Assembly: GCA_903908245.1 (NCBI GenBank)
Contig: CAIVRE010000006.1
Location: 21,951-85,950 of the forward strand
DNA from: Candidatus Omnitrophota bacterium
GTDB lineage: Bacteria; Omnitrophota; Gorgyraeia; Zapsychrales; Fredricksoniimonadaceae
DNA length: 64,000 nt
Direction of reading: 5' to 3'
The translations under genes and the position numbers were made by a program. Positions 34,679-63,834 of this stretch are shown piece after piece. The notes below the pieces were generated by a model. It saw only the letters and a list, made by a program, of their open reading frames with translations. It had not been told where the DNA came from and did not search any database. Numbering within the stretch: position 1 is the first letter of the stretch; each line of letters begins with the position of its first letter.

Positions 34679-36714
34679 TATGGCTTATTGATATCCGCCA
34701 GGATATCTTTGATCGAACGCTCAAGCGCATCCAACATCATATCGATCTCTGATGCTGCTATCGACAGCGGCGGCATCAGCACGATCACATTGCCCAGAGG
34801 CCGAAGAATAACGCCATAGTCCCGTGCCCGCTCGCACACACGTACGCCAATGCGTTCCTGCCAGTCAAAAGGCTCTTTGGTCACCCGGTCCTTGACCAGT
34901 TCGATCCCGACCATCAATCCGCGCTGGCGGATATCACCGACTTGCGCAATATCGCGAAAGCGTTCCAGCCCTCGCGCAAGATAGCCGGCAGATCCCCGGA
35001 CCCGGTCAAGGGTCTTGTCCGACCTGAACAATTCAAGGTTCGCCAGCGCGGCCGCGCAAGCGATCGGATTCCCCGTATACGTATGGCCGTGAAAGAACGC
35101 CTGCATATCCTTATACGGGAATTGGAATCCGTCATAAATGCGTCGCGTCGTCAATGTCGCGGCCAGCGGCAATACCCCGCCGGAAAGCCCTTTGGCAATG
35201 CACAGAAGGTCCGGATGGACATCTTCGTGCTCGCAAGCGAACATCTTCCCCGTCCGCCCAAAACCGGTCGCAACCTCATCACAGATCAAAAGCACATCAT
35301 ATTCCCGGCACAGCCCTTCCAATCGTTTCAAAACACCCGCCGGCCACATCATCATCCCCGCCGCCCCCTGGACGATCGGCTCGACCACCAACGCCGCCAC
35401 CCTGGAATGCTCTTTCTTCAGGAAAACCCCGAACGCATCAACAGCCTCGAACACCCGTGTATCCCGGTAGCAATCCGGGAAAGGGACCTGATGTGCCTTG
35501 AAAATAAGCTTGCGGTAAACTTTATGAAAAAGGTCGATGCCGCCGATGCTGACACTCCCCAGTGTGTCTCCATGGTAAGAGTTCTGTAAATGACAAATAC
35601 CCGACTTCTTCGCAACGCCCGTATTCTGCCAATATTGATACGCCATCTTGACCGCGATCTCAACCGCCGTCGACCCGTTATCCGAATAAAAGACCCTCTC
35701 CAGGCCCTTGGGCGCAATACCAACAAGCCGCTCCGCCAACTGCACGGCGGGCGTATTGGCCAGGCCAAGCATGGTGGAATGGTCAAGCCGCGCTGCCTGA
35801 CGGGCGATAGCCTCTGTTATCTCCGGCCGGCCGTGGCCATGCACCGTAACCCAAAGGCTTGAAACAGCATCCAAATACCTTCGGCCGTCCGTATCGACCA
35901 GGAATGATCCCTGTGCCCGGTCGATCACCAGCGGAACGCCGGGAATATCCGACTCCCAATCACGCATCTGCGTGAACGGATGCCAGATGAACTTCTTGTC
36001 CGTTTCAACCAGTTTCTTCGTACAGCCAGGCCGCGCAGATATCAACGCCTCGATGTTGATCGTCTTGCGGCACGCCGCAAAAACGGACGCCGCGTCCTTT
36101 TTCTTCAAAAAAGGGACCTCTCCCAGGACCGGGACCGAACATAGCTCCCTGATCGCTTCTGGATTCGTTCGCTCGGGAACACCCCGCTTCTTCCCTGCCG
36201 GATCTGAAAAAACGATCCCTGATACGGTCAATGCCCTGCGCTCGGCTTCACGCACTGTCAAAAGCGTATGGTTGATACTCCCGAGCCCAAGACGGGAAAC
36301 AACAATGACCTCTGCACCAAGGTCCCTGGCCAGATCGGCCATAAAATAACCATCGATGATCGGGACCAGCAACCCCCCCGCGCCCTCGACCAGGAGAATG
36401 TCATATTTCGCGGCCAGCCTCCCGGCGGCGAATAAAACCCTGTCCTTGTTAAAAACGACCCGCGTGCGCTTTAAAGCCAAATGAGGTGAAAGCGGCTCGC
36501 GGGCAGAATACGGGTTGATATCACGGATATCATCCGTCAATCCCAACCGCCTCTTGAGGAACTGCGCATCACCCGATCTTTCATCGCCGGATTGCACCGG
36601 TTTCATCACGCCTGTCGACAATCCTTTGGCCCTCAACAGCAAGGCCAGGGCATAGACAAACATCGTCTTGCCCACACCGGTATCCGTCCCTGTAATAAAA
36701 ATAATACGGCTCAT
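34666..36714 (-). CDS. bioDA: Bifunctional dethiobiotin synthetase / adenosylmethionine-8-amino-7-oxononanoate aminotransferase (BioD-BioA fusion)
   Basis: N-terminal BioD P-loop FITGTDTGVGKT. C-terminal class-III aminotransferase with a Schiff-base Lys (LLCIAKGLSGG). 682 aa. Confidence 0.85.
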   Translation of the reverse strand: MSRIIFITGTDTGVGKTMFVYALALLLRAKGLSTGVMKPVQSGDERSGDAQFLKRRLGLTDDIRDINPYSAREPLSPHLALKRTRVVFNKDRVLFAAGRLAAKYDILLVEGAGGLLVPIIDGYFMADLARDLGAEVIVVSRLGLGSINHTLLTVREAERRALTVSGIVFSDPAGKKRGVPERTNPEAIRELCSVPVLGEVPFLKKKDAASVFAACRKTINIEALISARPGCTKKLVETDKKFIWHPFTQMRDWESDIPGVPLVIDRAQGSFLVDTDGRRYLDAVSSLWVTVHGHGRPEITEAIARQAARLDHSTMLGLANTPAVQLAERLVGIAPKGLERVFYSDNGSTAVEIAVKMAYQYWQNTGVAKKSGICHLQNSYHGDTLGSVSIGGIDLFHKVYRKLIFKAHQVPFPDCYRDTRVFEAVDAFGVFLKKEHSRVAALVVEPIVQGAAGMMMWPAGVLKRLEGLCREYDVLLICDEVATGFGRTGKMFACEHEDVHPDLLCIAKGLSGGVLPLAATLTTRRIYDGFQFPYKDMQAFFHGHTYTGNPIACAAALANLELFRSDKTLDRVRGSAGYLARGLERFRDIAQVGDIRQRGLMVGIELVKDRVTKEPFDWQERIGVRVCERARDYGVILRPLGNVIVLMPPLSIAASEIDMMLDALERSIKDILADINKPYCGC

Positions 36715-37460
36715 TTTTGCGCCTGCAACCAGATCACTTCAAAAGAGACCTGCCCGTTAAAATTCTTTAAATAATATGATTCCGCCCGCTTCAAGACATC
36801 CCGGCCAATGAACATCCCGCGGCCTAAGCCGCTGGTCCCTGTCTCCCTCAACCAAAGGAGGACCTCCTTGATCGATCCAAAATCCTCCCGGCGATATTCA
36901 CGCTCAAAATCAAATCCCGTGAACCCTGCCGTCGCGATCGCCGCGCAAACATCTTCCAATGAAGGCAGACGCGGCATCGTATCGATCCTTGCCGATAGGC
37001 CGGAAGATGCCGCAGCAAGGGCCCTGAACAACTCCCCCAGCGTATCCCGGCCGAAAAGAACAGCCTCGAATTTTCCGCCGGGTTTAAGAACGGCGGCGGC
37101 AGAACGAAATGCCGCCGGAAGGTCCGTTGACCAGTGATAGCATGATGACGAAACAAGGATGTCGAGCGACTCTCTCTTGAACGGCAGACGACCATGGTCG
37201 GCGCGGACACGCGAGCCCTCACCGCGCAACAGCATCCCTTCCGATGCATCGACCCCCACATACACCGCATCAGGATACCTCTGCCTTAGTGCCTCCAGCA
37301 GCCGGCCGGTCCCCGTTCCGATATCCGCCACGGTATCACCGGGACGAACACGGACCTTCCCTGCCAACTCAACCGCCAACGCCCGCTGAATACGTGCGCG
37401 GGCATCATAGAACCCCGCAGCATCAGAAAAATACTTGGATATTTGCGCACAAGAAGTCAT
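36711..37460 (-). CDS. bioC: Malonyl-ACP O-methyltransferase BioC
   Basis: SAM-MTase motif I DIGTGTG. Position within the bio operon. Confidence 0.75.
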   Translation of the reverse strand: MTSCAQISKYFSDAAGFYDARARIQRALAVELAGKVRVRPGDTVADIGTGTGRLLEALRQRYPDAVYVGVDASEGMLLRGEGSRVRADHGRLPFKRESLDILVSSSCYHWSTDLPAAFRSAAAVLKPGGKFEAVLFGRDTLGELFRALAAASSGLSARIDTMPRLPSLEDVCAAIATAGFTGFDFEREYRREDFGSIKEVLLWLRETGTSGLGRGMFIGRDVLKRAESYYLKNFNGQVSFEVIWLQAQK

Positions 37461-38200
37461 TGCAGAAATCTCTCCACCCGACGGTTAAAAACATCAGGAA
37501 TGCTCAGGAACGGAAAGTGAGCGACATCTTTGAGCGCCTCGACCTGCAATGATGGCAGAAGCCGACGCAGCGGCTCGATCACCGCTGACGGACAAATAGG
37601 GTCACTATCACCTGTAATAAAAAGGCACGGCTGGGTAAGGCGCGATAACTCCGGACGAAGATCCTCTGTTCCTAACATCGCCAATACCCCCAACAGCCCT
37701 TCACGGCACGGCAAGGGGCTCTGGCAGCGCAATTGCTTGACCTGAAAATAGCGCGGCCGCTCTTTTTCTTTCCTGGTAAAAAGAGACCGGAAAAACATAT
37801 CCAATACTGTTCCGATATCTTTATCGAGCTGGCCTGCCAGCTTGCGGATCCTGGCCGGATCAAGCCCGGCGGGGAAACCCTCCGTCACCGTAAATCTGGG
37901 AAGCGCCCCGGCAAAAACGATACGCCGTACAAAGTCCGGATAAAGTTCGGACAATTTGACCGCGACCAGGCCTCCGAAAGAACTGGCGACAATATCCGTT
38001 AAAGCAACCCCCTCCTCCCGGCACTGCGCATGGACAAGGCGGGCCATATCCTCCAGGTTCTCCCCGTTCCAGGGGCGGCCGCCATGGCCAGGAAGGTCGA
38101 TCAAAAGGACCTTTCTCCCGGCAGAGAAATACTCTTTCTGCCATTGCCAGATACTGGAACAACCGCCGAACCCGTGGATAAAAACGATCGGATCATGCAT
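37457..38200 (-). CDS. bioH: Pimeloyl-ACP methyl ester esterase BioH (alpha/beta hydrolase)
   Basis: HGFGG ... nucleophile elbow SSFGG ... bio operon context. Confidence 0.7.
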   Translation of the reverse strand: MHDPIVFIHGFGGCSSIWQWQKEYFSAGRKVLLIDLPGHGGRPWNGENLEDMARLVHAQCREEGVALTDIVASSFGGLVAVKLSELYPDFVRRIVFAGALPRFTVTEGFPAGLDPARIRKLAGQLDKDIGTVLDMFFRSLFTRKEKERPRYFQVKQLRCQSPLPCREGLLGVLAMLGTEDLRPELSRLTQPCLFITGDSDPICPSAVIEPLRRLLPSLQVEALKDVAHFPFLSIPDVFNRRVERFLQ

Positions 38201-39353
38201 GGGACATCACCTTCTTGAATGCGCTCACACAATGCTCAAGATCACTGCCCGTATGCGCAGCGGTTACGGTCACACGCAACCGCGCCGACCCCGAAGGAAC
38301 CGTCGGAGGGCGAATAGCCGAAACAAAGATGCCTTCCTCCAGCAATGCCTTCGACCAGCGCACCGCACGGTCAGCGGATCCAAGCATCACGGGAATAATG
38401 GGCGTGATCCCCGGCGGAACATCGAGCCCGAGTGCCTGCAAAGCCTCGCGCAGGGATCCTGCCGACCTTAACACCTTTTGCCTGCGCTGAGGTTCCGCCC
38501 TGATGATCCTTAACGCCGCCCGGCCTGCCGCCGCGACTGACGGCGGAAGCGCGGTCGTAAAGACCACGCTGCGCGCGGCATTCAATAAATGATCGACAAG
38601 GACCCTGGACCCCGCCGCATATGCGCCAAAAGACCCGGCCGCCTTGGATAAAGTCCCCATCTGAACATCGACAACGCCAGCCACACCCAGTTCCTCTGCC
38701 ATGCCCGAGCCAGACACACCGAACAAACCGAAAGCGTGCGCTTCATCCACCATCAGCCACGCATTATGACGCTTGGCCAACGCCGCCAGTTCCACAAGAG
38801 GCGCAACATCCCCGTCCATGCTAAAGACGGTGTCGGTCACGATCAACTTACGACGGGCATTTGTTTCCGCCGCCAGCAGGGCATCAAGCGCAGCCATATC
38901 ATTATGAGGATACCGCCGCATTGAAGCACGGCTAAGGACGATCCCATCAACAATAGATGCATGATTAAACCGGTCGGAAAATACCGCGTCATCCCGGCCC
39001 ACCAGCGCGGAAATGATCCCGACATTCGCCATATATCCTGCAGAGAACAGAAGCGCCGCTTCCGTCTTTTTCAAGGCCGCGATGTCCCGCTCCAATGCGG
39101 TGTGTTCGTCAAAATTGCCACAAACCAGGCGCGATGCTCCCGCCCCGAACCCGCGCTGCCCGGCAACAGAGCCCGCGGCAAGGGCCATGCGGGGATCTGC
39201 CGCCAGTCCCAGGTAATCATTGGAACAAAAATTCAACACCGGCCGGCCGTCAAGAATAACCTCCCGGGATTGCGCAGAAGCGACCTCCCGCAAGGACCGC
39301 CGAAGCCCCTGTCCATCCAACTTCAGCAACTCGGCCGCCAATACATCATTCAC
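38193..39353 (-). CDS. bioF: 8-amino-7-oxononanoate synthase
   Basis: Class II aminotransferase with LGTLSKA PLP-Lys region. 386 aa. Confidence 0.85.
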   Translation of the reverse strand: MNDVLAAELLKLDGQGLRRSLREVASAQSREVILDGRPVLNFCSNDYLGLAADPRMALAAGSVAGQRGFGAGASRLVCGNFDEHTALERDIAALKKTEAALLFSAGYMANVGIISALVGRDDAVFSDRFNHASIVDGIVLSRASMRRYPHNDMAALDALLAAETNARRKLIVTDTVFSMDGDVAPLVELAALAKRHNAWLMVDEAHAFGLFGVSGSGMAEELGVAGVVDVQMGTLSKAAGSFGAYAAGSRVLVDHLLNAARSVVFTTALPPSVAAAGRAALRIIRAEPQRRQKVLRSAGSLREALQALGLDVPPGITPIIPVMLGSADRAVRWSKALLEEGIFVSAIRPPTVPSGSARLRVTVTAAHTGSDLEHCVSAFKKVMSHA

Positions 39354-40321
39354 GCGTTTTTTCCCTTCATTTCCAACAGGATATCCCCGGCCATCCTCTT
39401 GACGGTCTCGCCGCTGTCCAACTGTACCAGTAACCCTCCGTCATCGGCCAGGCCCATCGCAACGCCTTCCCGCTTACACCCGCGCTCTTCAAACTGCACC
39501 CGCCGGCCGATCGTAGCCGACCGCCGCCGCCACTCCTCAAGAGAAGGGGCGAACCCCTGTTTTTTCAGGTTCAAATATCGTTTCTCAAACGCACGCAGGA
39601 ACTCCCGCAACAAGCCGACCCGATCGCAAGCCTGGCCAAGCACTTCTTTCAAGGAAACTCCTTCCGGCGGAAGTTCTTTGGACAATGTATTCACATTCAA
39701 ACCAACACCGACAACCGCAAAATCCACACGATCGACCTCAGCACGCAGATCGGTCAGGATCCCCGCCAATTTTCTGCCGTTCAACAGCAAGTCATTCGGC
39801 CATTTGATCAACGGCCGTAAACCGGAAAAAGACTCCACGGCCTCGCTTAAAGCCACGGCGCTGAGCAGTGTAAGCCGGGCAGCCTCGGACGATGACAACG
39901 CCGGACGCAAAAGCATGGAAAAATATAATCCCTTTGACTTGGGAGACACCCAGGAGCGGCCCAAGCGACCGCGGCCTTTGGTCTGGGATTCAGCGGTCAC
40001 AATGATGCCTTCCGGGGCGCCATTCATCCCCAGACGAAAAGCTTCATCCATAGTAGAGGGGATCTCATCAAAGAAATGCACATGACAACCGAACTTGCGC
40101 GTACCCAGGCCGTGTTGAACTTCGGTGGCGATCAACTTGTCAGGGACCGCAACCAGCTTATACCCGTGATGCGAAACCGCCTCGACCTTATACCCTTCCA
40201 GGCGCAGGTCTTCCATACACTTCCAGACCGCGGCCCGGCTGACACCAAGGGTACGGCTAAGGTCCTCTCCAGAAACAAAACCGTCGGTTTCTCTCAAATA
40301 TTGAAGGATCTTTACACGCAT
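39350..40321 (-). CDS. birA: Bifunctional biotin-protein ligase / bio operon repressor BirA
   Basis: N-terminal winged HTH and ligase core GRGRLGRSW. 323 aa. Confidence 0.9.
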   Translation of the reverse strand: MRVKILQYLRETDGFVSGEDLSRTLGVSRAAVWKCMEDLRLEGYKVEAVSHHGYKLVAVPDKLIATEVQHGLGTRKFGCHVHFFDEIPSTMDEAFRLGMNGAPEGIIVTAESQTKGRGRLGRSWVSPKSKGLYFSMLLRPALSSSEAARLTLLSAVALSEAVESFSGLRPLIKWPNDLLLNGRKLAGILTDLRAEVDRVDFAVVGVGLNVNTLSKELPPEGVSLKEVLGQACDRVGLLREFLRAFEKRYLNLKKQGFAPSLEEWRRRSATIGRRVQFEERGCKREGVAMGLADDGGLLVQLDSGETVKRMAGDILLEMKGKNA

Positions 40322-43132: not shown

Positions 43133-44446
43133 TCATTCTCCAAAAGCAAAACCCATTTCCGCTTCACAAACAACCTGGCCATCCACCCTGCAAACACCCG
43201 TCGCCTGCGCAATGCGCGAACGCGCCTTGGTCACTTCAACTTCCATTACAACCTGATCGCCAGGCTCAATGACCTTGCGGAATTTAACCTTATCAACAGA
43301 CATAAAGAACGCCAGCTTGCCGCGCAACTCGGGATTGCTGAGCATCGTGACCCCCACCACCTGCGCCATCGCCTCCACCATCAAAACCCCGGGCATGACC
43401 GGACGCGCCGGAAAATGCCCCTGGAAGAAAGCCTCGTTCATCGTAACATTCTTGATCGCGACCGCGCGCTTGCCAGGCTCGATCTCGGTAATACGGTCGA
43501 CCAGAAGGAACGGATAACGATGCGGAATAATATTCATGATCCCGCGCACATCAAGCCCGGCGCCTTCTTTTATGTCAACCTTAAAGACCTCACGCTTTGA
43601 TTCATATTTTATCTTCTGCTCGGCGATCTTCTTAAGAAGCTCGCGGTTGAGATTATGCCCGCTCTTAAAAGCAAACACATGGCCTTTCAAAGGAATGCCG
43701 AGCAAATACAGATCGCCGACGCAATCCATCAACTTGTGACGGGCAGGCTCGTCCGGAAAACGAAGCGTGTTCTGAACCACGCCCTCTGGCCCGAAAACAA
43801 GGGTATTGGCATAATTAGCACCCTGGCCAAACCCCTTTGCCCGTAAAGCATCCGCCTCATCCTTAAGGCAAAAAGTGCGGCAAGGAGCGATATCCCGTTC
43901 AAAATTCTCCGGAGTTACCGCGAACGTGACGGAAGCGCGCAACAGGGGATGCGCATATTCCAGCGCGTAGGAAACTTTAAAATCATCCGCCGGAACGATC
44001 ATGACCGATGCGCCGTCCCTGGAAACACAAAGGGTCTCTTTCACTTCAAAATACGTCTTGTCCGCCTCCAGGTCAACGATCCCGGCCAACATTAAAGCCT
44101 TCACATACTCCCTCGCACTCCCATCAAGGCCGGGGGCTTCATCCCCGTCCATCTCGATGATAATATTGTCGAGCCCAAGCCCTGCCAGCGCGCCCATCAT
44201 ATGCTCAATGGTATAGATCTGCCCATCGCCGACCTTAAGGGCGGAATACCTCCCCGAATCCCCGCCGCTGATCACAGCCATGCTGCCCAGCTTCACCAAT
44301 GGGCTGCCCGGCATATCCGTACGCTTGAAAACGATCCCCTCGCCCGCCTGAGCCGGTTTGAAAACAACATTGACCTTGTGCCCGGTATGCAAACCGGTTC
44401 CGCCAAGCCGGGCCTCTGAACAGATCGTCCTTTGTTTCAACAGCAT
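43133..44446 (-). CDS. lpxC-fabZ: Bifunctional UDP-3-O-acyl-GlcNAc deacetylase / 3-hydroxyacyl-ACP dehydratase (LpxC-FabZ fusion)
   Basis: N-terminus MLLKQRTI...GTGLHTG (LpxC) with the zinc-binding HKLMD motif. C-terminal hot-dog FabZ (HRYPFLLVDRI...GHFP...PGVL). Confidence 0.9.
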   Translation of the reverse strand: MLLKQRTICSEARLGGTGLHTGHKVNVVFKPAQAGEGIVFKRTDMPGSPLVKLGSMAVISGGDSGRYSALKVGDGQIYTIEHMMGALAGLGLDNIIIEMDGDEAPGLDGSAREYVKALMLAGIVDLEADKTYFEVKETLCVSRDGASVMIVPADDFKVSYALEYAHPLLRASVTFAVTPENFERDIAPCRTFCLKDEADALRAKGFGQGANYANTLVFGPEGVVQNTLRFPDEPARHKLMDCVGDLYLLGIPLKGHVFAFKSGHNLNRELLKKIAEQKIKYESKREVFKVDIKEGAGLDVRGIMNIIPHRYPFLLVDRITEIEPGKRAVAIKNVTMNEAFFQGHFPARPVMPGVLMVEAMAQVVGVTMLSNPELRGKLAFFMSVDKVKFRKVIEPGDQVVMEVEVTKARSRIAQATGVCRVDGQVVCEAEMGFAFGE

Positions 44447-52047: not shown

Positions 52048-52800
52048 TTACTTTTTCGGAGCCGCAGGCTTGGCCGCGCCAGCCGCAGGCTTCGCACCGG
52101 CCGCCGGTTTTGCCCCTGCCGCCGGTTTCGCCCCTGCCGCCGCTTCCGCCGCAGGATCCTTGGGCTTCTCTTTAATAACTTCAAGTGTCGGTGCCACCAC
52201 TTCCGCATCGGCTGCGGGAGCTTCCTCACGACTGGAATAGACCACCGCCACCACCACCGCGCCCGGATCCATCTTGGTCCGGACACCGGACGGAAGAGCA
52301 AGGTCGCTGACATGGATCGCGTGATGCGTGTCGAGATTAGTCACATCCACTTCAATATGTTGCGGGATATCTTTCGGTAAACAGATCACTTCCAGCTCGC
52401 GCAACCCGTGCTCAAGCGTGGCCCCGATCTTCTTAAGGCCGATCGCCTCGCCTTTGACCACGATCGCCACACGGAAGGCGATCTCTTTATCCATTGAAAT
52501 GCGCTGAAAATCAATGTGATCGACCGCATCACTGACCGGATTAAAATATGTTTCCTTCGCCAGCGCGATACAATCACTGACCTTTTTTTCGCCTGCCAGG
52601 ATCTGCACCTGGAAAAGAATACTTTCCCCGTGATGCTCGCGCATGATACGGTCAAAATCCTTGCGCATCAGCTTGACCGACAAGGGTTTTTCCGCCCCGC
52701 CGTACACCACGCCAGGGATATAACCCGCCTTGCGAAGGGTCTTCACTTCCCCGGAGCCTGCTTCATTCCTGACCTGTAAATCCAATTTGATCTGTTCCAT
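52048..52800 (-). CDS. rplY: 50S ribosomal protein L25 / general stress protein Ctc with a low-complexity C-terminal tail
   Basis: L25 beta-barrel N-terminus plus Ctc domain. C-terminal (AGAKPA)n repeats. Confidence 0.85.
   Translation of the reverse strand: MEQIKLDLQVRNEAGSGEVKTLRKAGYIPGVVYGGAEKPLSVKLMRKDFDRIMREHHGESILFQVQILAGEKKVSDCIALAKETYFNPVSDAVDHIDFQRISMDKEIAFRVAIVVKGEAIGLKKIGATLEHGLRELEVICLPKDIPQHIEVDVTNLDTHHAIHVSDLALPSGVRTKMDPGAVVVAVVYSSREEAPAADAEVVAPTLEVIKEKPKDPAAEAAAGAKPAAGAKPAAGAKPAAGAAKPAAPKK
52060..52150. repeat. Imperfect tandem 18-nt repeats encoding the (AGAKPA)n tail of Ctc
   Basis: GGCTTCGCACCGGCCGCC / GGTTTTGCCCCTGCCGCC / GGTTTCGCCCCTGCCGCC. Confidence 0.7.
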
Positions 52801-55111: not shown

Positions 55112-55298
55112 TAATATAATAGTGGCACACGAGACGATAAAATAGCCATGGAACCGCTAAGGTGCGATAGTATATCTTACGACTTTTTTTTCGTCAAGGA
55201 GAATTAGGCGCCTTGATTTATCCTCAAAAGGGTTGCTAAACCCTGGTTTATCTTTTATACTTAAATTGTCGATTGACCAGAAATCTACAAAGGTCCCT

Positions 55299-56885
55299 AT
55301 GCTTTTAAAAAATAAAGGGCAATCCGTTCTCGAATATATGCTGCTCGCCTCGATCATTATGGTCGGGATCATCATTGGCGGGCCTATATTATTAAAATCC
55401 GTCCAGGGCTATTTCCAGCTCACCGATGAAAGCGTACAGGACGCGACTTCCGAGATCATCCAGCAGGCCCCCGATGCCACGAATATCCCCAAGATCTGCG
55501 GATGTTCGAACGGCACCACCGCCCTGCCCAGCGCACTGAACATCGGCAGCTATCAGGCCGCCGGCTGGTCACAAGGCGAGTGCGGCGTAGGCAACTGCAG
55601 TGCCCTGCAAAGATACTTTTACCGCACCTGCTCTCCGATCAAATGCGCGGCGGAAGAAGCCTGCGTTCCCGACGGCACCTGCTGCTCTGCGCCAGAGCCT
55701 CTGAGCTGCGGGACACGCTTCTCGGCAGGTTCAGCCACTTTGAACTGTACCCAGGCTGGAAAGACCAAAACCACCCTGGATGCAAGATTCGGCGGCTCCT
55801 ATACCAACACCTGTGACCTGTTATCCGCCAACGGCTACGACTGCCTTGTCGGCCAACGATTATATGTCAGACAATGCGCCAATGCCGCCAACCCCAGCAC
55901 GAAAGACACGATCTATGCCTGCAAAGGCCCGGATGATGAGACAAAGCAAAATTGCCTGCCTACCTGCTGGCAGTATCCTTTCCCGGGATCAAAACCCTGC
56001 AACGGGCCCGCTACAGGGGACGCCGAAAAAGATGACTACATGGTCCGGGAGAATGCACTCCAGGACGCCAAGGCCACGGCCATCGCCCTGCGCACAGACC
56101 TGATCCCGGAAGTCATCTACCGTCAATCCGCCACCAACTCGGGCGATAACCCGCCCAACATCAATGAAGAACCGAAGGATATGGCCTATTACGCACGGGT
56201 AAGCGCGCACCTCGTCGAACCACCCCCTCATAACCCCTACAGGATCCTGACCAAGAACGCGGAAACATCCGATATCCTGAAGTTCAACTCTTACCGCGCT
56301 CATTATGTATATTTAAAAGCCAACCAATGCGCCGACGCGCGCTATTGCGAAAGGCGCTGTCCCGGCGGCTATGGGCCGAATCCGGAAGGCCTCAGGGGCA
56401 TGCGCGAGAATGAAAGCTGCGCACAGTTGGCCTGCCTGTACGGCTGGTGGCCGGAAATAGAACCCCTGCCTGTAGCCGCGGGCTCGCGAGACACAGCAAA
56501 AGCATCCCCGGCCAACCAGATATGCGACGCCCTTGATGAACCGAAAATATGCCTCCCCAATACAGATATTTGCGGCTATATCGCCGTATGCTCATCCCCG
56601 TCTGGATACAGTTACCGGACATCCGACACCAGCGGCAGCTTTGATCTGAAGAAACTCGCTGACTCTGCAGCCCCTTGCGATACCGGGTATCGCAAGATCT
56701 CCGACCTGCACAACAAGATAACATACTGTTATAAAGCGACCCCAAGCGCCAGCCCCATAGCGGCACTCCCCGCCGACTTCCATTGTGACGCCGGCAATAT
56801 CTTTGTTGAAAGCTTCGGCTATCCGGCAAATGCGGCCACCAAAGACAACACTCTCTTTTTTACGCTCCTCGGATGCGACAACTGA
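55299..56885 (+). CDS. Cysteine-rich (~40 Cys) 528-aa secreted protein with an Flp/type-IV-pilin-like class III signal peptide
   Basis: MLLKNKG|QSVLEYMLLASIIMVGIIIGG: a short basic leader ending in Gly, Glu at +5, Tyr at +6 and a hydrophobic helix, matching the prepilin peptidase motif G/xxxxEY. The remainder is a unique Cys-rich extracellular region. Confidence 0.7.
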   Translation: MLLKNKGQSVLEYMLLASIIMVGIIIGGPILLKSVQGYFQLTDESVQDATSEIIQQAPDATNIPKICGCSNGTTALPSALNIGSYQAAGWSQGECGVGNCSALQRYFYRTCSPIKCAAEEACVPDGTCCSAPEPLSCGTRFSAGSATLNCTQAGKTKTTLDARFGGSYTNTCDLLSANGYDCLVGQRLYVRQCANAANPSTKDTIYACKGPDDETKQNCLPTCWQYPFPGSKPCNGPATGDAEKDDYMVRENALQDAKATAIALRTDLIPEVIYRQSATNSGDNPPNINEEPKDMAYYARVSAHLVEPPPHNPYRILTKNAETSDILKFNSYRAHYVYLKANQCADARYCERRCPGGYGPNPEGLRGMRENESCAQLACLYGWWPEIEPLPVAAGSRDTAKASPANQICDALDEPKICLPNTDICGYIAVCSSPSGYSYRTSDTSGSFDLKKLADSAAPCDTGYRKISDLHNKITYCYKATPSASPIAALPADFHCDAGNIFVESFGYPANAATKDNTLFFTLLGCDN

Positions 56886-56910: not shown

Positions 56911-58131
56911 ATGGCAAAGAAACTCCGTATCCTTCTTCATTACACCCACAAACAAACTCTCGGCCACACCACCCGCACGATCTCGCTTGCGACATCTATT
57001 GTTGATCACCACGCAACAAAAACAAGCCTTCTGCTCCTGCAGGGTGGAGCGCTTCAACCCCTTATAGAACACCCCAAAGGGTACAGGCTCCTGAACATCC
57101 CCTTCCCGTTCGATACCCGGGACAGTTTTCGCTCCCGCTCAATACCGCAGCGAACAACCGAACGCGCCGCGTTCATCCTTAAAGCCGCGCAAGAATTCAC
57201 CCCCGGCGTCTTTATAACAGAATTCTTCCCTTTCGGCCGTTCAGCCTATATCCCGGAACTTCTTCCGGCGTTGCGTTATTTGCGGAAGACCGGCTGCAGG
57301 ATCATTGCCAGTATCGGCTATCCTCTCATCATCGACCTGATCCGCCTTCAGGACAGGCAATTCGCGGCGGTATATAAAGCCCTGCTGTCCTTTTACGATG
57401 CCTTCCTGATCCACACACCCGAACAACTCGAAACGCCCTATTTTCTAAGGTCCATCGCCTCAAAAGAGATCGCGGACCTTTACACCGCGACCCTTGGATC
57501 GATCAGAAAGAAAATGATCCATACCGGCTATATTTTCCCCCGGCGAATACTGACACCGACGAAGAACGACGGCCTTGAAAAACTCCCCCCCGCCCCGAAT
57601 ACAGTGATTGTCAGCCGCGGCGGCGGCGCTGTATATCCCAAACTCATTGTCAACGCGATCCAAGCTCAAAAACTCCTCGGGAAGAACTTCCGGATGATCA
57701 TCGCCTGCGGCCCATCCACATCCGAAAAAGAAATGTCCCTCTTTAAACAGGTCCTGAAAGAAAACAAAGGCAGCCCGATCCTTTTGACCAGCCACCTCTC
57801 CGACCTGGATGATCATCTGCGGACCTGCCAGGTCTCGATAAGCCTCTGCGGCTATAATACATCGGTACAACTGATGCGCCATGGCACTCCGTCGGTGATC
57901 GTGCCCTACAGTAACGGGCTCTCCCGGATGCCCACCAATGACCAGATCGCCCGTGCCGCCCTTCTTCAAGAGAAATTCGCAAGCACCGTCCTGTCTTACG
58001 ACACGCTGACCCCCCGGTCGCTCGCCCAGGCCATTCGTGCGCGGGCCGACCGGCCGCGGCCGGCCCCGGCGCCATTGTCCTGGTTCCAGGGAGCGCGAAC
58101 CTCTGCCAAGATCATCGTCGAGGAGGCCTAA
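56911..58131 (+). CDS. GT-B fold glycosyltransferase (GT28/MurG-like)
   Basis: N-terminus MAKKLRILLHYTHKQTLGHTTRT (degenerate GGTGGH loop) and a MurG-like C-terminal nucleotide-sugar-binding half. Listed ORF starts further upstream, overlapping the preceding gene. Confidence 0.6.
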   Translation: MAKKLRILLHYTHKQTLGHTTRTISLATSIVDHHATKTSLLLLQGGALQPLIEHPKGYRLLNIPFPFDTRDSFRSRSIPQRTTERAAFILKAAQEFTPGVFITEFFPFGRSAYIPELLPALRYLRKTGCRIIASIGYPLIIDLIRLQDRQFAAVYKALLSFYDAFLIHTPEQLETPYFLRSIASKEIADLYTATLGSIRKKMIHTGYIFPRRILTPTKNDGLEKLPPAPNTVIVSRGGGAVYPKLIVNAIQAQKLLGKNFRMIIACGPSTSEKEMSLFKQVLKENKGSPILLTSHLSDLDDHLRTCQVSISLCGYNTSVQLMRHGTPSVIVPYSNGLSRMPTNDQIARAALLQEKFASTVLSYDTLTPRSLAQAIRARADRPRPAPAPLSWFQGARTSAKIIVEEA

Positions 58132-58132
58132 A

Positions 58133-59176
58133 ATGGAGCATCAAGCCTTCACCGGAATGGACGCGCGCCGTTTTGACACAAGGGACTTCAATATCAACCG
58201 GCCCGAAGTTGAACGCTTATGCGCCATATTCAATACCGGCAGGCTGCTGGAGTGGATCCCCGAAAAAGGCCTGCGCCTGTCCCACTCGAACTTCACCGTT
58301 TACGCGAAGTGTTCCCGTGGACAATATATTTTTAAATTCCAGCCGGCCACGAATGAATGGTTCCGGCGCATTGAAAAGAACGTTCAAACAGAATGGCTCC
58401 TCAACCGCCTGCTGATATCCAAGACTATCGCGGTCCCGCCCATGTTCCGCGCGAACGACCGCCGGCCTTATGCCTTATCCGGTCAATATTGCACGACCTG
58501 CTATACCTATCTCGACGGTTACCCTGCCTACCAGAACAAGCTCGTCCCCAGGCAGGTCGCCAGGATCAATCGCGCCCTTTTCCTCCTGGATCAGGCCCTG
58601 GACACAGCGCCGGCTATCGTTAAATTGCTTAAAACAGAACCCCTCATAAAGAAATTGCGCCCGCTGACCGAAGCCGCTCCTGCATGCCCCCCCGCACAGG
58701 AAGCCCTCAAAGCTTTTAAAAGAACATATTCCGAAACCCCCCGGCTCTTTGTGGCACGGCCCGTCCATGCCAATCTCTCCCTGGCCAACATTTTCTTCTG
58801 CAATGGCCAGGCCTATATCCTGGACATCGGCCATATCCAGACAGACCAGGAATTATCCGGATTGGCGACATTGATCACCTCCTGCATTTTCCTGAGAAAA
58901 CCATCTTCGGTGATCCGCGGCCTTGTGCAAGGCTATTTCAAAGAACACCGGCTGGAGAAAGAAAAACTGGGCGTCTTGAATATCCTCGTTCAGCTTGATC
59001 TGGCCAAAGAATATATCAAGTTGAACACGCGGGGAGAAGAACGGGCCCGGCAGCTGCCGACCAACCGCCTGCAGAAAGAATATTCTTACCACCTTGGAAA
59101 ACGGATTGAAATGCTCAGGAACCTGCTTGAAAAGAAGAACGGCGGCCAAGAACGTCCGATAACAGGATTATTTTAA
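58133..59176 (+). CDS. Aminoglycoside-phosphotransferase-fold kinase-like protein with catalytic Asp replaced by Asn
   Basis: Perfect AGGAGG Shine-Dalgarno 7 nt upstream. VHANLSLANIFF aligns to HGDLHPGNLL (H-x-N instead of H-x-D). ILDIGH aligns to the IDxE/DFG-like metal site. Confidence 0.55.
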   Translation: MEHQAFTGMDARRFDTRDFNINRPEVERLCAIFNTGRLLEWIPEKGLRLSHSNFTVYAKCSRGQYIFKFQPATNEWFRRIEKNVQTEWLLNRLLISKTIAVPPMFRANDRRPYALSGQYCTTCYTYLDGYPAYQNKLVPRQVARINRALFLLDQALDTAPAIVKLLKTEPLIKKLRPLTEAAPACPPAQEALKAFKRTYSETPRLFVARPVHANLSLANIFFCNGQAYILDIGHIQTDQELSGLATLITSCIFLRKPSSVIRGLVQGYFKEHRLEKEKLGVLNILVQLDLAKEYIKLNTRGEERARQLPTNRLQKEYSYHLGKRIEMLRNLLEKKNGGQERPITGLF

Positions 59177-59849
59177 TTCCCCCTTTGTCACGCCAGCGGG
59201 AAATCCCCTTCAGAAAGAACTGCAATTCCCCCTCCAGCCCTTGCGCCGCGAACTCTTCATGATGAAGAAGGATCCCGGTCAATTGGCCCGGAACAACCGC
59301 CCGCACCAGATGCCGCAGCATATATCGGTGATCCATCTTCTTCCCCTGACCGTTGCGGGCGCCAAAAGATATTCCGGCGGGGATATCAAGGACTTTATCT
59401 CCGGGAGAGAACGCCTTCTTGCCGGCAGAAAAACCGGCGAACCTGCACTTTTTCACAAGGCCGAGCGTTGTCGCGTCATATCCATGGAACGGAGGAACAA
59501 AGACCGAAGTGAACATTTTTCCGAAAACCGACTTCATCACGGACATCCCCCTCTTAAGATCACGCCCCTGGCAAGCGGCGCAACGCGAAGGCCCGAACTC
59601 ATACTTCCGCTCTCCCGGGCGGGAATGATCCGCATGGCTCCAGCCATGCTGAACAATATCCAATAATCCAGGCGTCCGCGCTTTCTGGCGCTTTAACATA
59701 CCCGCCAGTCGGCTGTCCAGGCCATCAGGGATCACCGCGTACACCACGGGAAGATCCTTCTCCAGGAATAAACGAAAGAATTCCTTGAAATAACCGCCTG
59801 CAGCCTTTACATCATCATCCCGGATAAAAAGATACGCCGGCCTCATCAC
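59115..59849 (-). CDS. Divergent NodB-like polysaccharide/carbohydrate deacetylase
   Basis: FIRDDDV ... VQHGWSHADH motif pair as seen in divergent polysaccharide-deacetylase families. 244 aa. Last gene of the minus-strand operon. Its 3' end overlaps the kinase-like gene by 62 nt. Confidence 0.5.
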   Translation of the reverse strand: MMRPAYLFIRDDDVKAAGGYFKEFFRLFLEKDLPVVYAVIPDGLDSRLAGMLKRQKARTPGLLDIVQHGWSHADHSRPGERKYEFGPSRCAACQGRDLKRGMSVMKSVFGKMFTSVFVPPFHGYDATTLGLVKKCRFAGFSAGKKAFSPGDKVLDIPAGISFGARNGQGKKMDHRYMLRHLVRAVVPGQLTGILLHHEEFAAQGLEGELQFFLKGISRWRDKGGIKIILLSDVLGRRSSFQAGS

Positions 59850-59850
59850 G

Positions 59851-60594
59851 TCAACCTCCCCGCTTTCGGCAACAGTTCAACGCCAGCGCTCTGACACTCG
59901 CCGGGACCTGCAACTCGGGTTTGCCCACGCAGGGAAATAAAACGGATAGATCCGGCGACAATGAACGCAGCAACCGCTTGCCTTTCTTAAGCGGTGCCGG
60001 GATACGGACAGCAGCATCAAGGACCGCCTTCTCAAGGAAAGGGAATACGATTTCCCGGCCGGAATCTGCCGCGATGATCCCGTGATGACGTACCATCTCC
60101 CGCGCCTGGCTGCGCCGCCGGGCGGTTGACGGTCCCCGGGCCATCGCCTCTTCCCCCAGCCACTGATCACTGCCCATCCCTGCCCAGAAACGTTTGAACG
60201 AAGACGGAAGTTTCAGGAGCGCGGCATGCAAAAGAGGGATGTCATAATCGCGGCCCCTTCCTTTCAAAAGCTCCTCAACGCGTATCGCAGAAAGAATATA
60301 TTCTTTCAGGGAAACCCGGACCACCTGATGCCTGGCCTTAAGCAGACGGGCCGCCCGTTGAGCCTCAAGGACCGTACGCGGATTATACCTGTCGAAAGCC
60401 ACCGTGACCGCCGCAACGCCGGGGAAAACCTGCCTGGCCTGTTCATATAAGAAAATCGAATCAAAACCGCCGCTGAACATTACCGCCGACGGAATGCCTC
60501 CCGACCGGATGGCCACGGCCATCGCGGCACACAACTCGACACGGAATTGCTCCGTCCGAAGATTCTTTTCAGGATTAGCCGTTTTTCTTTTCAT
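59851..60594 (-). CDS. PP-loop ATP-pyrophosphatase, asparagine-synthetase-B-like C-terminal domain only (PseA/WbuX-type amidotransferase candidate)
   Basis: PP-loop MFSGGFDS. 247 aa with no glutaminase domain. Confidence 0.6.
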   Translation of the reverse strand: MKRKTANPEKNLRTEQFRVELCAAMAVAIRSGGIPSAVMFSGGFDSIFLYEQARQVFPGVAAVTVAFDRYNPRTVLEAQRAARLLKARHQVVRVSLKEYILSAIRVEELLKGRGRDYDIPLLHAALLKLPSSFKRFWAGMGSDQWLGEEAMARGPSTARRRSQAREMVRHHGIIAADSGREIVFPFLEKAVLDAAVRIPAPLKKGKRLLRSLSPDLSVLFPCVGKPELQVPASVRALALNCCRKRGG

Positions 60595-61577
60595 GCCAGA
60601 TAACGCAAATTAAATGGTTTCAAAAAACCGTGATAGGCAAAACACCCGGGGCAATCCCCCTTCTTGGCGGATCGGAACATTACGCCCCTTTGAAGATCCA
60701 GCCCGTCCGGAAGGCCTCCTTTAAGGTCAACACAGCCCACCGGCGGCATATACAGGCATGGATGAACATCGCCGCCGGAAGTGATGAACAAACTATTCTT
60801 CGGCGTAGCGCAAGCCGAGATCCCCTTCCGGCCAGAGTCAAGCAAATGCAGGACAGCCTCGGCCATCGCCCGGTCGATCCCCTCTGCCCCGCCATGGAGA
60901 ATATCCAATACCTGCGCGCGTACGCTGGAACGCATCAATGCCGTCAACGAAGACAACGCCTGAACTCCCGGCCCGCCGCTGCGATGATAATACGCCGCAA
61001 CCCCATACTCCATGATCTTGGGAGAGAATCGCGCGCCGAAACGACGGGCAAGCCGATACACCTCCCCAAGGGCATGATAATTAACACGGTTAATGGTGAA
61101 CTTCAACTCCAGCTTAACACTGTCCCGGCACTCGCCCGCCAGGAACTCCAGCGTCTTCATTGTCTTGCGGTACGCCCCCTTGCCCCTCAGGGCATCATGC
61201 GCCTGCTCATCCCCGTCCACACTCACCCCTACCTCGATACCGTTGAACATTCTTCCTTGAGACTTGAACAGTCTTTGAATACGCGCGGTACAAGCCCCAT
61301 TCGTGTAAACACCATATCCGGTCACAAGGCCGCGCGATCTCATCAGCGCCAGAAAACGCAGGACCCCCCCGATCCCGGGATGCAGGAAAGGCTCGCCGCC
61401 CGTGACCGATATGAACCGGACCTGATAATTCCGCAACAGGCTTTCGGTCAACCGGATAAAACGGGACGCTGATATCTCGCGCCTGGAGCGTTCCTTCCAT
61501 ATCGCGCAAGCCCGGCAGCGCAGTTGACAGCGGTTGGTCACCTCAACGGTCACATCCCTTAATACAGCCTTGGTCAT
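60591..61577 (-). CDS. Radical SAM enzyme with C-terminal SPASM/twitch-like cysteine cluster
   Basis: CQLRCRAC (CX3CX2C) near the N-terminus. C-terminal cysteines CATPKNSLFITSGGDVHPC...CVDLKGG...CPGC. 4-nt overlaps on both sides. Confidence 0.75.
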   Translation of the reverse strand: MTKAVLRDVTVEVTNRCQLRCRACAIWKERSRREISASRFIRLTESLLRNYQVRFISVTGGEPFLHPGIGGVLRFLALMRSRGLVTGYGVYTNGACTARIQRLFKSQGRMFNGIEVGVSVDGDEQAHDALRGKGAYRKTMKTLEFLAGECRDSVKLELKFTINRVNYHALGEVYRLARRFGARFSPKIMEYGVAAYYHRSGGPGVQALSSLTALMRSSVRAQVLDILHGGAEGIDRAMAEAVLHLLDSGRKGISACATPKNSLFITSGGDVHPCLYMPPVGCVDLKGGLPDGLDLQRGVMFRSAKKGDCPGCFAYHGFLKPFNLRYLA

Positions 61578-62725
61578 TGCCTCACCAACCCTTTCAAGCC
61601 TCTGCCGGACGGGCCAGATTGAACACGGGCCAATACCGCATGCACAGACCTGTTAAGCTCCGCATGCCCGCAGTACCGGCACTCCCTCCAGCGGTCTTTC
61701 CTGATATCAATACACCGCATCGCGTCCTGCCGGATCTTCTGAAATTTGACTGACCCGAACCAGATATCCTTGAAAGATCCTTTATAAATATTCCCCGCGA
61801 TACAAACCCCGATATTGTCGCAGGGAGCGACGACCCTGCCCCGCTCGTCGATCAGGGCATTGAACCACCCGGTATAACAATGCACCCGCTCCTGCGGCAC
61901 CGCGTGATAATAAAAAAGCCTGTCGTTATTCCATTTTGTCGGCGCCATTGCCGCCCGGTCCTTCACAAACCCCTTTCGGGAAATGATATCGTGGATCTGC
62001 GACAAATTATTGATCGCCCGATGCCGGCCCTTTCCGGCCCTGGCAATGATCCCCAGCAAGGGTTTCATTGACCCCGGCGAAAACACCAGGGATTTCATCT
62101 CGACCGTAGCCTCAAAAAGGCGAAAAGCCACCCGGTCGACCTGAAAACGATCCGTCAGATCAAGATACGCCTCGATCTCCCTGTAATTCACTTCATTGAT
62201 AATGAACGTAAGCACCAGCGACGGCTTGCCGTACTTTGTACGCATGGCCGATAACAGGCGCAAATTGTCAATGACATCCCCGAACCCGTCTTTGCCATGA
62301 ATACGGCGGTAGGAAGCGGCCGTAGTGGCGGAAAGGTTGACATTAAGCCGGTCGGCCAACCGGAGGTAGTCGAGATGCTCCCGGCCATAATCCAGATGCG
62401 TATACGCCGCCAGCGACATCCCCAGGCGATGGACCAGGCGAAAAGCCTCGGCAACGCGTGGATACAGGGCCACCTCCCCTCCCTCCAGATTGATCTCCTC
62501 AACACCCATCCCGGCACAATCATGGATCAACCTTTTTAAAACATCAAAATCAATATCCTTGCGCTTTTCACGCCAGGAGACCATCGGAGAAAAATACCAG
62601 CAGAACCTGCACCGGCGGTCGCAGGCATTGGTCAAATGGACATTGACCGAACGCGGCCCGATCAGCGGCTTTCCCGAAAGGATCCCCTTGAACCTCAAAC
62701 GCTCGGATGCGCGGTCCCAACTCAC
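61574..62725 (-). CDS. Radical SAM enzyme with C-terminal SPASM/twitch-like cysteine cluster (paralogous partner)
   Basis: CDRRCRFC (CX3CX2C). C-terminal HCYTGW...APCDNIGVC...CRYCGH. Confidence 0.75.
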   Translation of the reverse strand: MSWDRASERLRFKGILSGKPLIGPRSVNVHLTNACDRRCRFCWYFSPMVSWREKRKDIDFDVLKRLIHDCAGMGVEEINLEGGEVALYPRVAEAFRLVHRLGMSLAAYTHLDYGREHLDYLRLADRLNVNLSATTAASYRRIHGKDGFGDVIDNLRLLSAMRTKYGKPSLVLTFIINEVNYREIEAYLDLTDRFQVDRVAFRLFEATVEMKSLVFSPGSMKPLLGIIARAGKGRHRAINNLSQIHDIISRKGFVKDRAAMAPTKWNNDRLFYYHAVPQERVHCYTGWFNALIDERGRVVAPCDNIGVCIAGNIYKGSFKDIWFGSVKFQKIRQDAMRCIDIRKDRWRECRYCGHAELNRSVHAVLARVQSGPSGRGLKGLVRQ

Positions 62726-63834
62726 TTCGACCTCCGTCCCAGAAAAGCTTTACAGACAGCCACGACCTCCCGCGCCTTATCCAGGCCCATGAAAGAATAC
62801 AGGGGAAGATGCAAGCCGCAGGCGAAATACTCTTCGCTCACAGGGTACTTCCTGCGGCATGACTTTTGATACGCTCCCATCGCATGCAACGGCGTATACG
62901 GGCGCTGCGCAAGGATACCGTGCAATGAAAGAAATGCGAACAGCTCATCCCTGACAGAGAAATACACCAGGAAATTCTGCGGCACGATCCCGGCCTTTTC
63001 CCTGTCCTTAAAAATACGCACCCCTTCCATGGATCCCAGCGCCCCTGCATAGAAATCGCTGACCTGTTTGCGCGAATCAATGATCTTTTTTAAATGCGCG
63101 AATTTAACCCGTAAAGCGACCAGGTCCATCAAAGGCAAAGGCGCGAAACGCTGCCCCAGCCGCAAAAGCTCCCCGTCATCTTTCCAATCCTCCATCCAGC
63201 CGCGGATCCGTTCATATTTTTTGTCATTAAAAACAACCATCCCGCCCCCGCCCCCGCAGGAGGAAAGCGGCTTGTAATAAGAGAACGAAAAAGCCCCCAT
63301 ATCCCCGTAACTCCCCAGCATCCGGCCCTTCCATCGTGAACTTTCAGCCTGGCAAACATCCTCCAGAAGCACGATCCCCCGGTCCCGGCAAAGGCGCACC
63401 AGACGGTCCAGGTCACACGGCCGGCCGAACATATGCGCCGCGACCACCGCTTTCGTACGGCGCGTGATCATTCGCTCGACCTCAACAGGATCCATGGTCA
63501 GGTCTTGCGCACGGGCATCCACAGGGACCGGCTTCGCCCCGCAATAGGAAACAGCCAAAGGGACTGCCTGATAGGTCAAGTCCGGCACAATGACCTCGTC
63601 CCCCTTCTTGACGCCATTGGCCAAAAGCATCATCTTCAATGCGTCGCTTCCGGAATTAACCGCCACCGCGTGTTTAACCCCGATATACGCCGCGAACCGG
63701 TCCTCAAAATCACGGATTAAAGGCTTGATATCATTAAGCCCGTCAAGGCCCTTCACACACCGTTCCAATTCGGACGCATACTCACATGCAAGCGCGCGCT
63801 CGACAAGTGCACATTCATAGCGGACTTTTATCAT
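62722..63834 (-). CDS. DegT/DnrJ/EryC1/StrS-family PLP-dependent sugar aminotransferase
   Basis: 370 aa with DegT-family conserved segments (AVNSGSDAL, GDEVIVP, FSFSYYKP with PLP-Lys). Confidence 0.8.
   Translation of the reverse strand: MIKVRYECALVERALACEYASELERCVKGLDGLNDIKPLIRDFEDRFAAYIGVKHAVAVNSGSDALKMMLLANGVKKGDEVIVPDLTYQAVPLAVSYCGAKPVPVDARAQDLTMDPVEVERMITRRTKAVVAAHMFGRPCDLDRLVRLCRDRGIVLLEDVCQAESSRWKGRMLGSYGDMGAFSFSYYKPLSSCGGGGGMVVFNDKKYERIRGWMEDWKDDGELLRLGQRFAPLPLMDLVALRVKFAHLKKIIDSRKQVSDFYAGALGSMEGVRIFKDREKAGIVPQNFLVYFSVRDELFAFLSLHGILAQRPYTPLHAMGAYQKSCRRKYPVSEEYFACGLHLPLYSFMGLDKAREVVAVCKAFLGRRSK

Follow-up and report, generated by a model that had tools for sequence, protein, structure and literature searches.

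A cysteine-rich protein of 528 amino acids encoded by a Candidatus Omnitrophota bacterium is probably a modular subunit of a type IV filament. Its gene lies in a stretch of 64,000 nucleotides (nt) of contig CAIVRE010000006.1, called the window here, and extends on the plus strand from an ATG at 55299 to a stop codon at 56883-56885. The protein, which we call the target, begins with MLLKNKGQSVLEYMLLASIIMVGIIIGGPILL and joins a small pilin-type module at its N-terminus to a large cysteine-rich head. The open reading frame (ORF) given in a preliminary description of this DNA is real: the same 528-residue product has been called independently on four public contigs with identical sequence, and alignment shows that all close homologues use the equivalent start Met.

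A class III signal is defined as a hydrophilic leader that ends in Gly or Ala, followed by 21 mainly hydrophobic residues with Glu at position 5, which form the start of a helix of about 50 residues (PMC8179133). The target has exactly these parts. Its leader is basic and 7 residues long, G7 is followed by QSVL-E12-Y13 (site NKG/QSVLE, the slash marking the cut), and the tract after the cleavage site, QSVLEYMLLASIIMVGIIIGG, is a hydrophobic stretch of 21 residues with Glu at +5. From an alignment of 60 sequences, AlphaFold2 (AF2) predicts one helix of about 47 residues (residues 5-51; predicted local distance difference test, pLDDT, about 88-93 for the block 11-50), followed by a beta-rich domain. 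A six-frame scan of the window for ORFs of at least 40 residues that combine G-x4-E-(Y/F) with a hydrophobic run yielded the target alone. The basic leader, Gly at -1, Glu at +5, Tyr at +6 and hydrophobic helix of the preliminary description are all present, and they are conserved across 143 relatives. These are the members that retain the N-terminus among 156 family sequences (representatives clustered at 50% identity), and they were aligned on the Glu at +5, which is invariant in a 60-member alignment (A2). Position -1 holds Gly (66%) or Ala (30%) in 96% of them, and +1 is Gln in 96%. Farther on, Ser at +2 (76%), Tyr at +6 (87%), Gly at +21 (94%), Pro at +22 (88%), Phe at +32 (82%) and Asp at +41 (90%) stand out. 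The leaders of the relatives are short, commonly 5 or 7 residues, and basic, with Lys or Arg at -2 and -3. Among close homologues, the segment I30-P58 is close to invariant. Since the motif is unique in the window and the same positions are conserved across the relatives, it is more than a chance likeness, and a class III (prepilin-type) signal is well supported by the sequence. The N_methyl motif G/(F/M)-(T/S)-L-(I/L)-E is absent, as +1 is Gln and PF07963 is not matched.

The target belongs to an unannotated family that lies outside Flp_Fap, N_methyl and other described families. An exhaustive HMMER search of 1.84 billion cluster representatives identified 173 relatives of 63 to 1162 residues at E<=1e-3, of which 32 also pass E<=1e-10. 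The named members come from Candidatus Omnitrophota, together with two metagenome-assembled genomes (MAGs) labelled Planctomycetales. GTDB genomes scanned with a degenerate DNA pattern yielded eight matches, three of them real (locus L012 in Omnitrophus; L014 and L016 under the Planctomycetales label). A word-indexed homologue search returned four close relatives only, and a search with the family profile gave the same five proteins.

The family N-terminus is remotely homologous to the Flp pilins. Pfam Flp_Fap (PF04964) is matched at E<=0.1 by 14 of 60 members, and the best match is the N-terminal segment of a relative (E 1.2e-6, 28.6 bits); a close homologue matches Class_IIIsignal at E 0.008. 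For comparison by hhalign, two genes annotated in RefSeq as 'Flp family type IVb pilin' were taken from Phyllobacterium plasmids. Over 37 columns, their alignment and the family N-terminus agree in the positions of the cleavage-site Gly, of Glu5 and Tyr6, and of a downstream Phe (94% probability, E 1.4e-7), a result taken as remote homology and not as membership because shared composition inflates such scores between transmembrane helices. A PDB sequence search with the family N-terminal profile and a tblastn search of the N-terminus against plasmids returned nothing. The module also exists on its own. A stand-alone version of 63 residues, with nothing cysteine-rich after it, is found on four metagenomic contigs, proteins of 49-55 residues with a similar N-terminus exist, and one 63-residue member carries the IMG name 'Flp pilus assembly pilin Flp'. 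Because of these stand-alone versions, the Flp homology and an Epd-like signature described below, the first 55 or so residues appear to be a self-sufficient, Flp-sized pilin module, and the remainder an addition. Human-gut metagenome contigs (L078-L102) encode proteins of 275-360 residues whose N-terminus, RGQSIIEYVLIIAIIGLVIVFAGPGVAGAIRNQF, is also Flp-like. With few cysteines and a Gly/Ser-rich linker, they look like further large proteins on an Flp-type stem.

In relatives, the family gene stands where complete pilus clusters have their pilin gene; these clusters are of the PilMNOPQ/PilBC type and not of the Tad type. Metagenome contigs were scanned with the N-terminus of the largest subfamily (MNKxGQSIIEY...MGPYVLRSVNAHFKLWD), which gave about 50 loci; the neighbouring ORFs were clustered, and representatives were scanned against Pfam and mapped back by tblastn. 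A pilM homologue adjoins the family gene in divergent orientation in 29 loci of a sister subfamily; several of these loci are redundant. Where the contig is long enough, the full operon contains pilM (PilM_2), pilN, pilO, a gene of 114-120 residues and a secretin of 470-490 residues with STN/N0 domains. On the other side of the family gene, seven loci have a coiled-coil gene and then pilC (T2SSF); in six of the seven, a small gene with an MshEN domain and two genes for T2SSE ATPases (570-579 residues) come next. A motif scan of the pilus-cluster loci detected no pilin-like ORF besides the family gene, except for a second family copy in L052. The window and the examined loci of relatives showed no tad genes (TadV, RcpA, TadZ, CpaF/TadA, TadB/C). 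Of the proposed Flp type, the leader therefore stands and the pilus system does not: since the machinery of the relatives is PilMNOPQ/PilB/PilC-like, 'Flp' describes the leader only. Clusters for type IVa and Tad pili are reported to be frequent in Omnitrophota, with their pilins left undescribed (PMC10066038). Proteins of about 265 residues consisting of only a secretin C-terminal domain are encoded two genes upstream of family members (L019:8342-9139, L021:8320-9123), and they are also present in L034, L035, L045, L055, L060, L065 and L069. Their genes are in an operon with an RsmB-like methyltransferase, an AmiC-type amidase and a racemase.

A candidate gene for a prepilin-type peptidase is present on the source contig, which goes against the absence of such a peptidase that the preliminary description had named as a refutation. 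It lies about 17 kb downstream of the target, in L010, at about 73.3-74.2 kb on the scale of the window and hence outside it; tblastn with A24-like seeds found no such gene within the 64-kb window. The encoded protein has the motifs FFDITRQKILN and WRGGDAKLF. In L007 and L008, a related gene for a membrane protein of 302 residues (QD(V/I)xTxRIxN, WWGGGDAKLF) lies one gene downstream of the target orthologue. Both catalytic Asp motifs, D...R(I/L)xN and G-G-D-A-K-L-F, are present in these A24-like genes, and their matches to Pfam Peptidase_A24 span nearly the whole profile, with 28.7, 26.1 and 26.1 bits against a cut-off of 26.5.

The head is defined by its cysteines. The target has 31 of them and not about 40, as first estimated. 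The comparison of homologues confirms that they are conserved: 22 are invariant among five close homologues, and among 60 diverged members five never vary and a further eighteen reach 90% conservation or more, which makes cysteines the most conserved feature. One conserved cysteine sits two to three residues from the C-terminus in these 60 members. Residues 59-246 include a module of about 45 residues with the pattern W-x2-G-x-C-G...C...R...R-x-C-x-P-x2-C...C-x2-D-x2-CC. In residues 247-528, C344, C350, C354, C374, C379 and, in the penultimate region, C526 are near-invariant; AF2 confidence is lower in this part, with pLDDT <50 for residues 378-422. As the preliminary description noted, the head has no recognisable domain, and searches of Pfam, NCBIfam and solved folds gave no match. 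A likeness to the thrombospondin type-1 repeat (W..G.CG...C...R...R.C), seen by eye, was dropped when Pfam and fold searches gave it no support.

The cysteine module is also found elsewhere. It is present in tandem in apparent Sec-signal proteins with PKD, Ig-like, fn3, GDSL-lipase or Hint domains, and three copies are carried by a canonical N_methyl minor pilin (P0150 matches N_methyl). Its recurrence in Sec-signal proteins and on an N_methyl pilin argues for an extracytoplasmic module, presumably stabilised by disulfides, that has been grafted onto pilins of two classes. This minor pilin is the third of three G/F(S/T)L(I/V)E pilins in a canonical type IVa minor-pilin cluster (L022:289-3652); its three cysteine modules are in tandem, and a VWA protein is encoded next. 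Hint/intein-like domains (Hom_end_hint, Hint, Vint) are present in the cysteine-module protein P0105 and in one family member of alignment A2.

The gene evolves fast. The upstream gene order glmU-prs-L25-pth-S6-ssb-S18-L9-dnaB-bamA is common to the window and three related genomes. The flanking proteins are mostly 87-98% identical to those of the window (DnaB 97%, Prs 97%, BamA 87-89%), with the lowest values for GlmU (76% in one locus) and for Pth and SSB (71-79% in some). Between genomes with flanking genes that are 71-98% identical, the target is 42-45% identical. Among close relatives, identity falls from 67-78% in residues 1-58 to 43-65% in residues 59-380 and 14-38% in residues 381-528. 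Such a pattern is typical of exposed adhesins, major pilins and cassette-exchanging loci, and the divergence of the head is in keeping with a surface adhesin or antigen that is subject to diversifying selection or to replacement of alleles. Downstream of the target these close relatives differ completely, and the site behaves as a replacement hot spot. In two of them, radical-SAM clusters wholly unlike that of the window take this position (L005:11580-21605, L007:11563-21593), despite flanks that are 71-98% identical. The cluster in L005 contains an HxsD-like gene, small ORFs of 75-103 residues and a short-chain dehydrogenase, and that in L007 contains Peptidase_U32 and a diphthamide-synthase-like PP-loop gene.

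A path from preprotein to filament can be proposed on these grounds. The preprotein would enter the inner membrane through its hydrophobic N-terminal segment. An A24-family peptidase would then remove the 7-residue leader after Gly7 to expose Gln8 as the mature N-terminus, with Glu at +5. The helix of about 50 residues would let a pilus machine extract the protein and use it either as a polymerising filament subunit or at the filament tip; the machine next to the gene in the sister subfamily, as seen in relatives and not in this genome, is of the PilM-N-O-P-Q / PilB / PilC type. The cysteine-rich region of about 470 residues would be the exposed head, and its conserved cysteines most likely form disulfides in an extracellular beta-rich fold.

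Several observations weigh against a filament subunit. The subfamily found in pilus clusters is a sister group, about 28-30% identical overall to the target, and its taxonomy is not established. No pilus machinery was detected in the window or in 10 kb on either side by tblastn with machinery seeds and neighbour look-ups. Conventional pilins have also been reported in Omnitrophota, and therefore the pilus machines may polymerise other subunits. The A24-like genes reach the Pfam cut-off or fall slightly short of it, and they are part of radical-SAM clusters instead of pilus operons; a PDB sequence search and a homologue search with a partial protein found no relatives of their products. The full-length target has no Pfam or NCBIfam match at E<=10, its N-terminus alone matches only TIGR04205 ('class III signal peptide domain', E 0.039), and the Flp_Fap scores of all relatives are below the gathering cut-off of 32.2 bits; the compositional inflation of the hhalign scores belongs here as well. 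To our knowledge, a major pilin of 520 residues would be unprecedented.

Some of these points would suit a processed class III-signal protein of the surface or periplasm that is not a filament building block, but is anchored by its helix or held in a pseudopilus- or bindosome-like structure. Its pilin-type N-terminus would serve export and anchoring only. Such a protein could well have 528 residues (up to 1162 in relatives), far above known major pilins, be encoded far from pilus machinery (in the window and the 10 kb on either side looked at), and share its head modules with ordinary secreted proteins. It is nevertheless rather unlikely, as relatives hold the pilin position in complete pilus clusters without another pilin gene, the stand-alone 63-residue modules resemble real pilins, and the helix retains Glu5 and Gly21/Pro22. 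These residues are typical of polymerising type IV pilins.

The gene neighbourhood raises a different possibility. A gene for a family-28 glycosyltransferase (GT28) starts 28 nt after the target on the same strand with no terminator-like site in between, and the two are probably co-transcribed. A GT28 gene also adjoins relatives in L105, L019, L033 and L036, and homologues of the next gene, which encodes a kinase-like protein of the APH fold, immediately follow family members in L019, L030, L033, L034, L038, L050, L054 and L063. A convergent island follows (Table 1). The neighbouring radical-SAM enzymes of the preliminary description are found there, and six more are encoded just past the window (L010:1-10004), together with an AMP-ligase, an ApbA-type reductase, a second PP-loop gene and the A24-like gene.

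Four settings with unrelated upstream genes have the island gene set beside a family member: the window, a named Omnitrophica MAG (L105), the pair L019 and L034, and a group (L033, L036, L054, L063) in which the island comes after the pilMNOPQ-pilin junction. No such island genes are present within 10 kb in L021, L037, L039, L048, L056, L064 and L066. L020 has nearby only thiamine-pathway genes (ThiH-like) and one unrelated radical-SAM gene, and translations in L038 show a different sugar-type island with GT2-like, epimerase-like and dehydrogenase-like genes and large membrane proteins. The association of the island with the family gene is thus real, but not obligatory. Mere inherited synteny was considered as an explanation of the radical-SAM link and is only partly true, given four independent contexts and yet absence from many others. 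Conserved multi-pass membrane proteins of about 520 residues (...FFPKDAWAYIDPGYGSYMISS) recur in pilin-adjacent islands (L038:12120-13688, L054:16323-17876); one possibility is that they are transferases that act on the outward-facing side of the membrane. The island is most plausibly a variable modification island that serves glycosylation. Pilin and flagellin glycosylation islands would be its analogues. As the least secure step of the proposed path, the GT28, kinase-like, DegT, deacetylase-like, amidotransferase-like and radical-SAM genes may make a modified sugar that decorates the protein.

The preliminary description had suggested that the protein is a substrate of the neighbouring radical-SAM enzymes, an idea not supported as a general rule, as many family members lack such neighbours. 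In its specific form, radical-SAM/SPASM enzymes would introduce thioether or other cross-links on the cysteines before export, which we consider very unlikely. The 31 cysteines, the eight radical-SAM genes within about 17 kb, several with SPASM, and the recurrence of the radical-SAM-rich island in four chromosomal contexts would agree with it, as would an enzyme similarity to the peptide maturases PapB, CcpM and HxsB/C that is weak and far below threshold. However, the same cysteine framework is found in the loci listed above without a radical-SAM gene within 10 kb, and in L020 with ThiH-like or unrelated neighbours only. The very close relatives L005 and L007 have different radical-SAM sets at the site, and no radical-SAM protein of the island comes near an NCBIfam family cut-off. 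The GT28, kinase-like, deacetylase-like and LegC/PseC-like aminotransferase genes form a typical sugar-pathway set, and the presence of the cysteine module in Sec-signal proteins with PKD and fn3 domains points to ordinary disulfides.

Sec signal peptides do not conserve sequence, and signal peptidase I cannot cut where Pro is at +1. That the N-terminus is an ordinary Sec signal peptide or an uncleaved signal anchor, and resembles prepilins by coincidence, is highly improbable, for although the target alone reaches no curated pilin model and its hydrophobic segment of about 21 residues could serve as a signal anchor, the Gly/Ala at -1, Gln at +1, Ser at +2, Glu at +5 and Tyr at +6 are kept in 76-100% of relatives that are at most 50% identical, inspection found no small-x-small or A-x-A-like site after the hydrophobic core, which ends in Gly-Gly-Pro, and the module is in register with Flp pilins and occurs in pilus clusters of relatives.

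Among known systems, a filament subunit of this kind shares features with several. Its likeness to Flp/Fap pilins (PF04964, Tad, type IVc) includes a short basic leader, the cleavage-site Gly, the Flp motif G/xxxxEY, and a hydrophobic helix that passes into a short amphipathic stretch containing a conserved Phe. In contrast to an Flp precursor of about 50-80 residues, the target is about ten times larger owing to its head, its family has Gln at +1 instead of Ala or Val, no member reaches the Pfam cut-off, and the machinery encoded next to relatives comprises PilM_2, PilN, PilO, a secretin, T2SSE with MshEN, and T2SSF, with no tad genes seen. The archaeal Epd pilins of Methanococcus maripaludis have a K-G/Q site with Glu at +5, and their dedicated, 'much larger' peptidase EppA needs Gln at +1 (PMC4371748). 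The target site and the Gln at +1 in 96% of the family, with Glu at +5, resemble this signature. The co-located A24-like proteins of about 300 residues are long relative to the 104-position Pfam core and in this respect, compared by size only, resemble EppA. Epd pilins are glycoproteins, which would be a further likeness if the target is glycosylated. Unlike them, the target has a bacterial host and an unrelated, far larger head.

Modular type IV pilins include PilB and PilC of S. sanguinis, CofB of enterotoxigenic Escherichia coli and GspK of the type II secretion system, and processed PilB has 454 residues (PMC8179133). The target resembles them in its size range and in having a small N-terminal pilin module to which a bulky one, meant for filament display, is grafted. 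Both modules of the target also exist independently, and the cysteine module occurs in three copies on an N_methyl pilin from a different organism. The known modular pilins have the IPR012902/N_methyl motif (G/F-T-L-x-E), whereas the target family does not, and they are minor components beside a major pilin, whereas the pilus clusters of the relatives show no other pilin gene. The grafted domains of the target family match no known fold. Archaeal bindosome subunits are large non-pilin-like proteins with a prepilin-type signal that depend on a PilB/PilC-type system for surface localisation (PMC4371748). These are archaeal and recognisable as substrate-binding proteins, whereas the target head belongs to no recognisable family, and its N-terminal module is conserved over about 55 residues and also occurs alone. 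The claim that the architecture is undescribed holds in part: family and head are unannotated, but large pilins with grafted modules are known (PMC8179133; PMC4371748). The target is best filed as a variation on the modular-pilin theme with an Flp/Epd-type stem. The putative pilin may be the major subunit, which would be remarkable at this size, or it may have a tip or minor role.

The coordinates of the gene, its neighbours and its presumed signals are collected in Table 1. The ATG at 55299 is favoured over an upstream TTG at 55233 because of the promoter-like site and the possible ribosome-binding site listed there; the promoter-like site lies within the 187-nt intergenic region between the target and the divergent glmU gene. 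The window has a G+C content of about 54% and carries genes of a bacterial outer membrane (BamA, LpxA/C/D), and the 10 kb to its left contain housekeeping genes only. GC skew is negative in all 2-kb bins (-0.05 to -0.26) and the genes are nearly all on the minus strand, and therefore window positions 1-64000 appear to lie within a single replichore. The target, GT28 and kinase-like genes are the plus-strand exception. Translations read by eye revealed a biotin cluster at 34666-40321, which starts with an apparent fused BioD-BioA of 682 residues and continues with BioC-, BioH-, BioF- and BirA-like genes. An apparent LpxC-FabZ fusion of 437 residues is encoded at 43133-44446 (-), and a ribosomal protein L25, whose C-terminal tail consists of AAGAKP repeats, at 52048-52800 (-).

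Table 1. Features of the target gene and its downstream neighbours, in window positions
Feature	Position	Strand	Basis
Promoter-like site TTGCTA-17-TATACT	55233..55261	+	Consensus scan alone; no functional evidence
AAAGG, possible ribosome-binding site	55289..55293	+	5 nt before the ATG, read from the sequence
Leader peptide M1-G7 (MLLKNKG), predicted prepilin-peptidase cut after Gly7	55299..55319	+	Leaders of relatives; predicted cleavage
Q8-P29, hydrophobic first half of the helix with Gln+1, Glu+5, Tyr+6, Gly+21, Pro+22	55320..55385	+	Family conservation, AF2
I30-P58, amphipathic second half of the helix and linker (ILLKSVQGYFQLTDESVQDATSE...)	55386..55472	+	Alignments
Residues 59-246, conserved cysteine-rich, beta-rich head domain	55473..56036	+	
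Residues 247-528, C-terminal region, more variable, containing 13 cysteines	56037..56882	+	Alignments, AF2
GT28 (family-28 glycosyltransferase)	56914..58131	+	Pfam Glyco_tran_28_C, E 1e-10
APH-fold (kinase-like) gene	58133..59176	+	Pfam APH, E 3e-4, below cut-off
Convergent island	59115..63834	-	Pfam, NCBIfam
DUF2334/deacetylase-like	59115-59849	-	
PP-loop Asn-synthase-like	59851-60594	-	
Radical SAM	60591-61577	-	
Radical SAM/SPASM	61574-62725	-	
DegT aminotransferase	62722-63834	-	Best matches LegC/PseC sugar aminotransferases, sub-threshold

A broader reading, possible though doubtful, is that the family provides the principal type IV pilus subunit of many Omnitrophota. Such a subunit would be disulfide-rich, hypervariable and probably glycosylated, with a mass of about 30-120 kDa. 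It would be built on the Flp/Epd-type module, processed by an unusually large A24 peptidase, and polymerised by PilMNOPQ/PilB/PilC. If this is true, the pili would represent a hybrid class of type IV filament that links the Tad/Epd and type IVa lineages, and they would likely be a contact organelle of ultra-small, host-dependent bacteria. The presence of an Flp/Epd-type module beside PilMNOPQ-type machinery bears on the relations among the classes of type IV filaments, and surveys of modular pilins that are keyed to N_methyl miss whole families. Omnitrophota are uncultured and mostly ultra-small, and type IV and Tad pilus clusters are among the main genomic arguments for a lifestyle of attachment or predation (PMC10066038). 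With its conserved pilin stem, its divergent, disulfide-rich head unmatched among solved structures, and a variable sugar/radical-SAM island beside it, the family is a concrete candidate for the exposed part that contacts the host.

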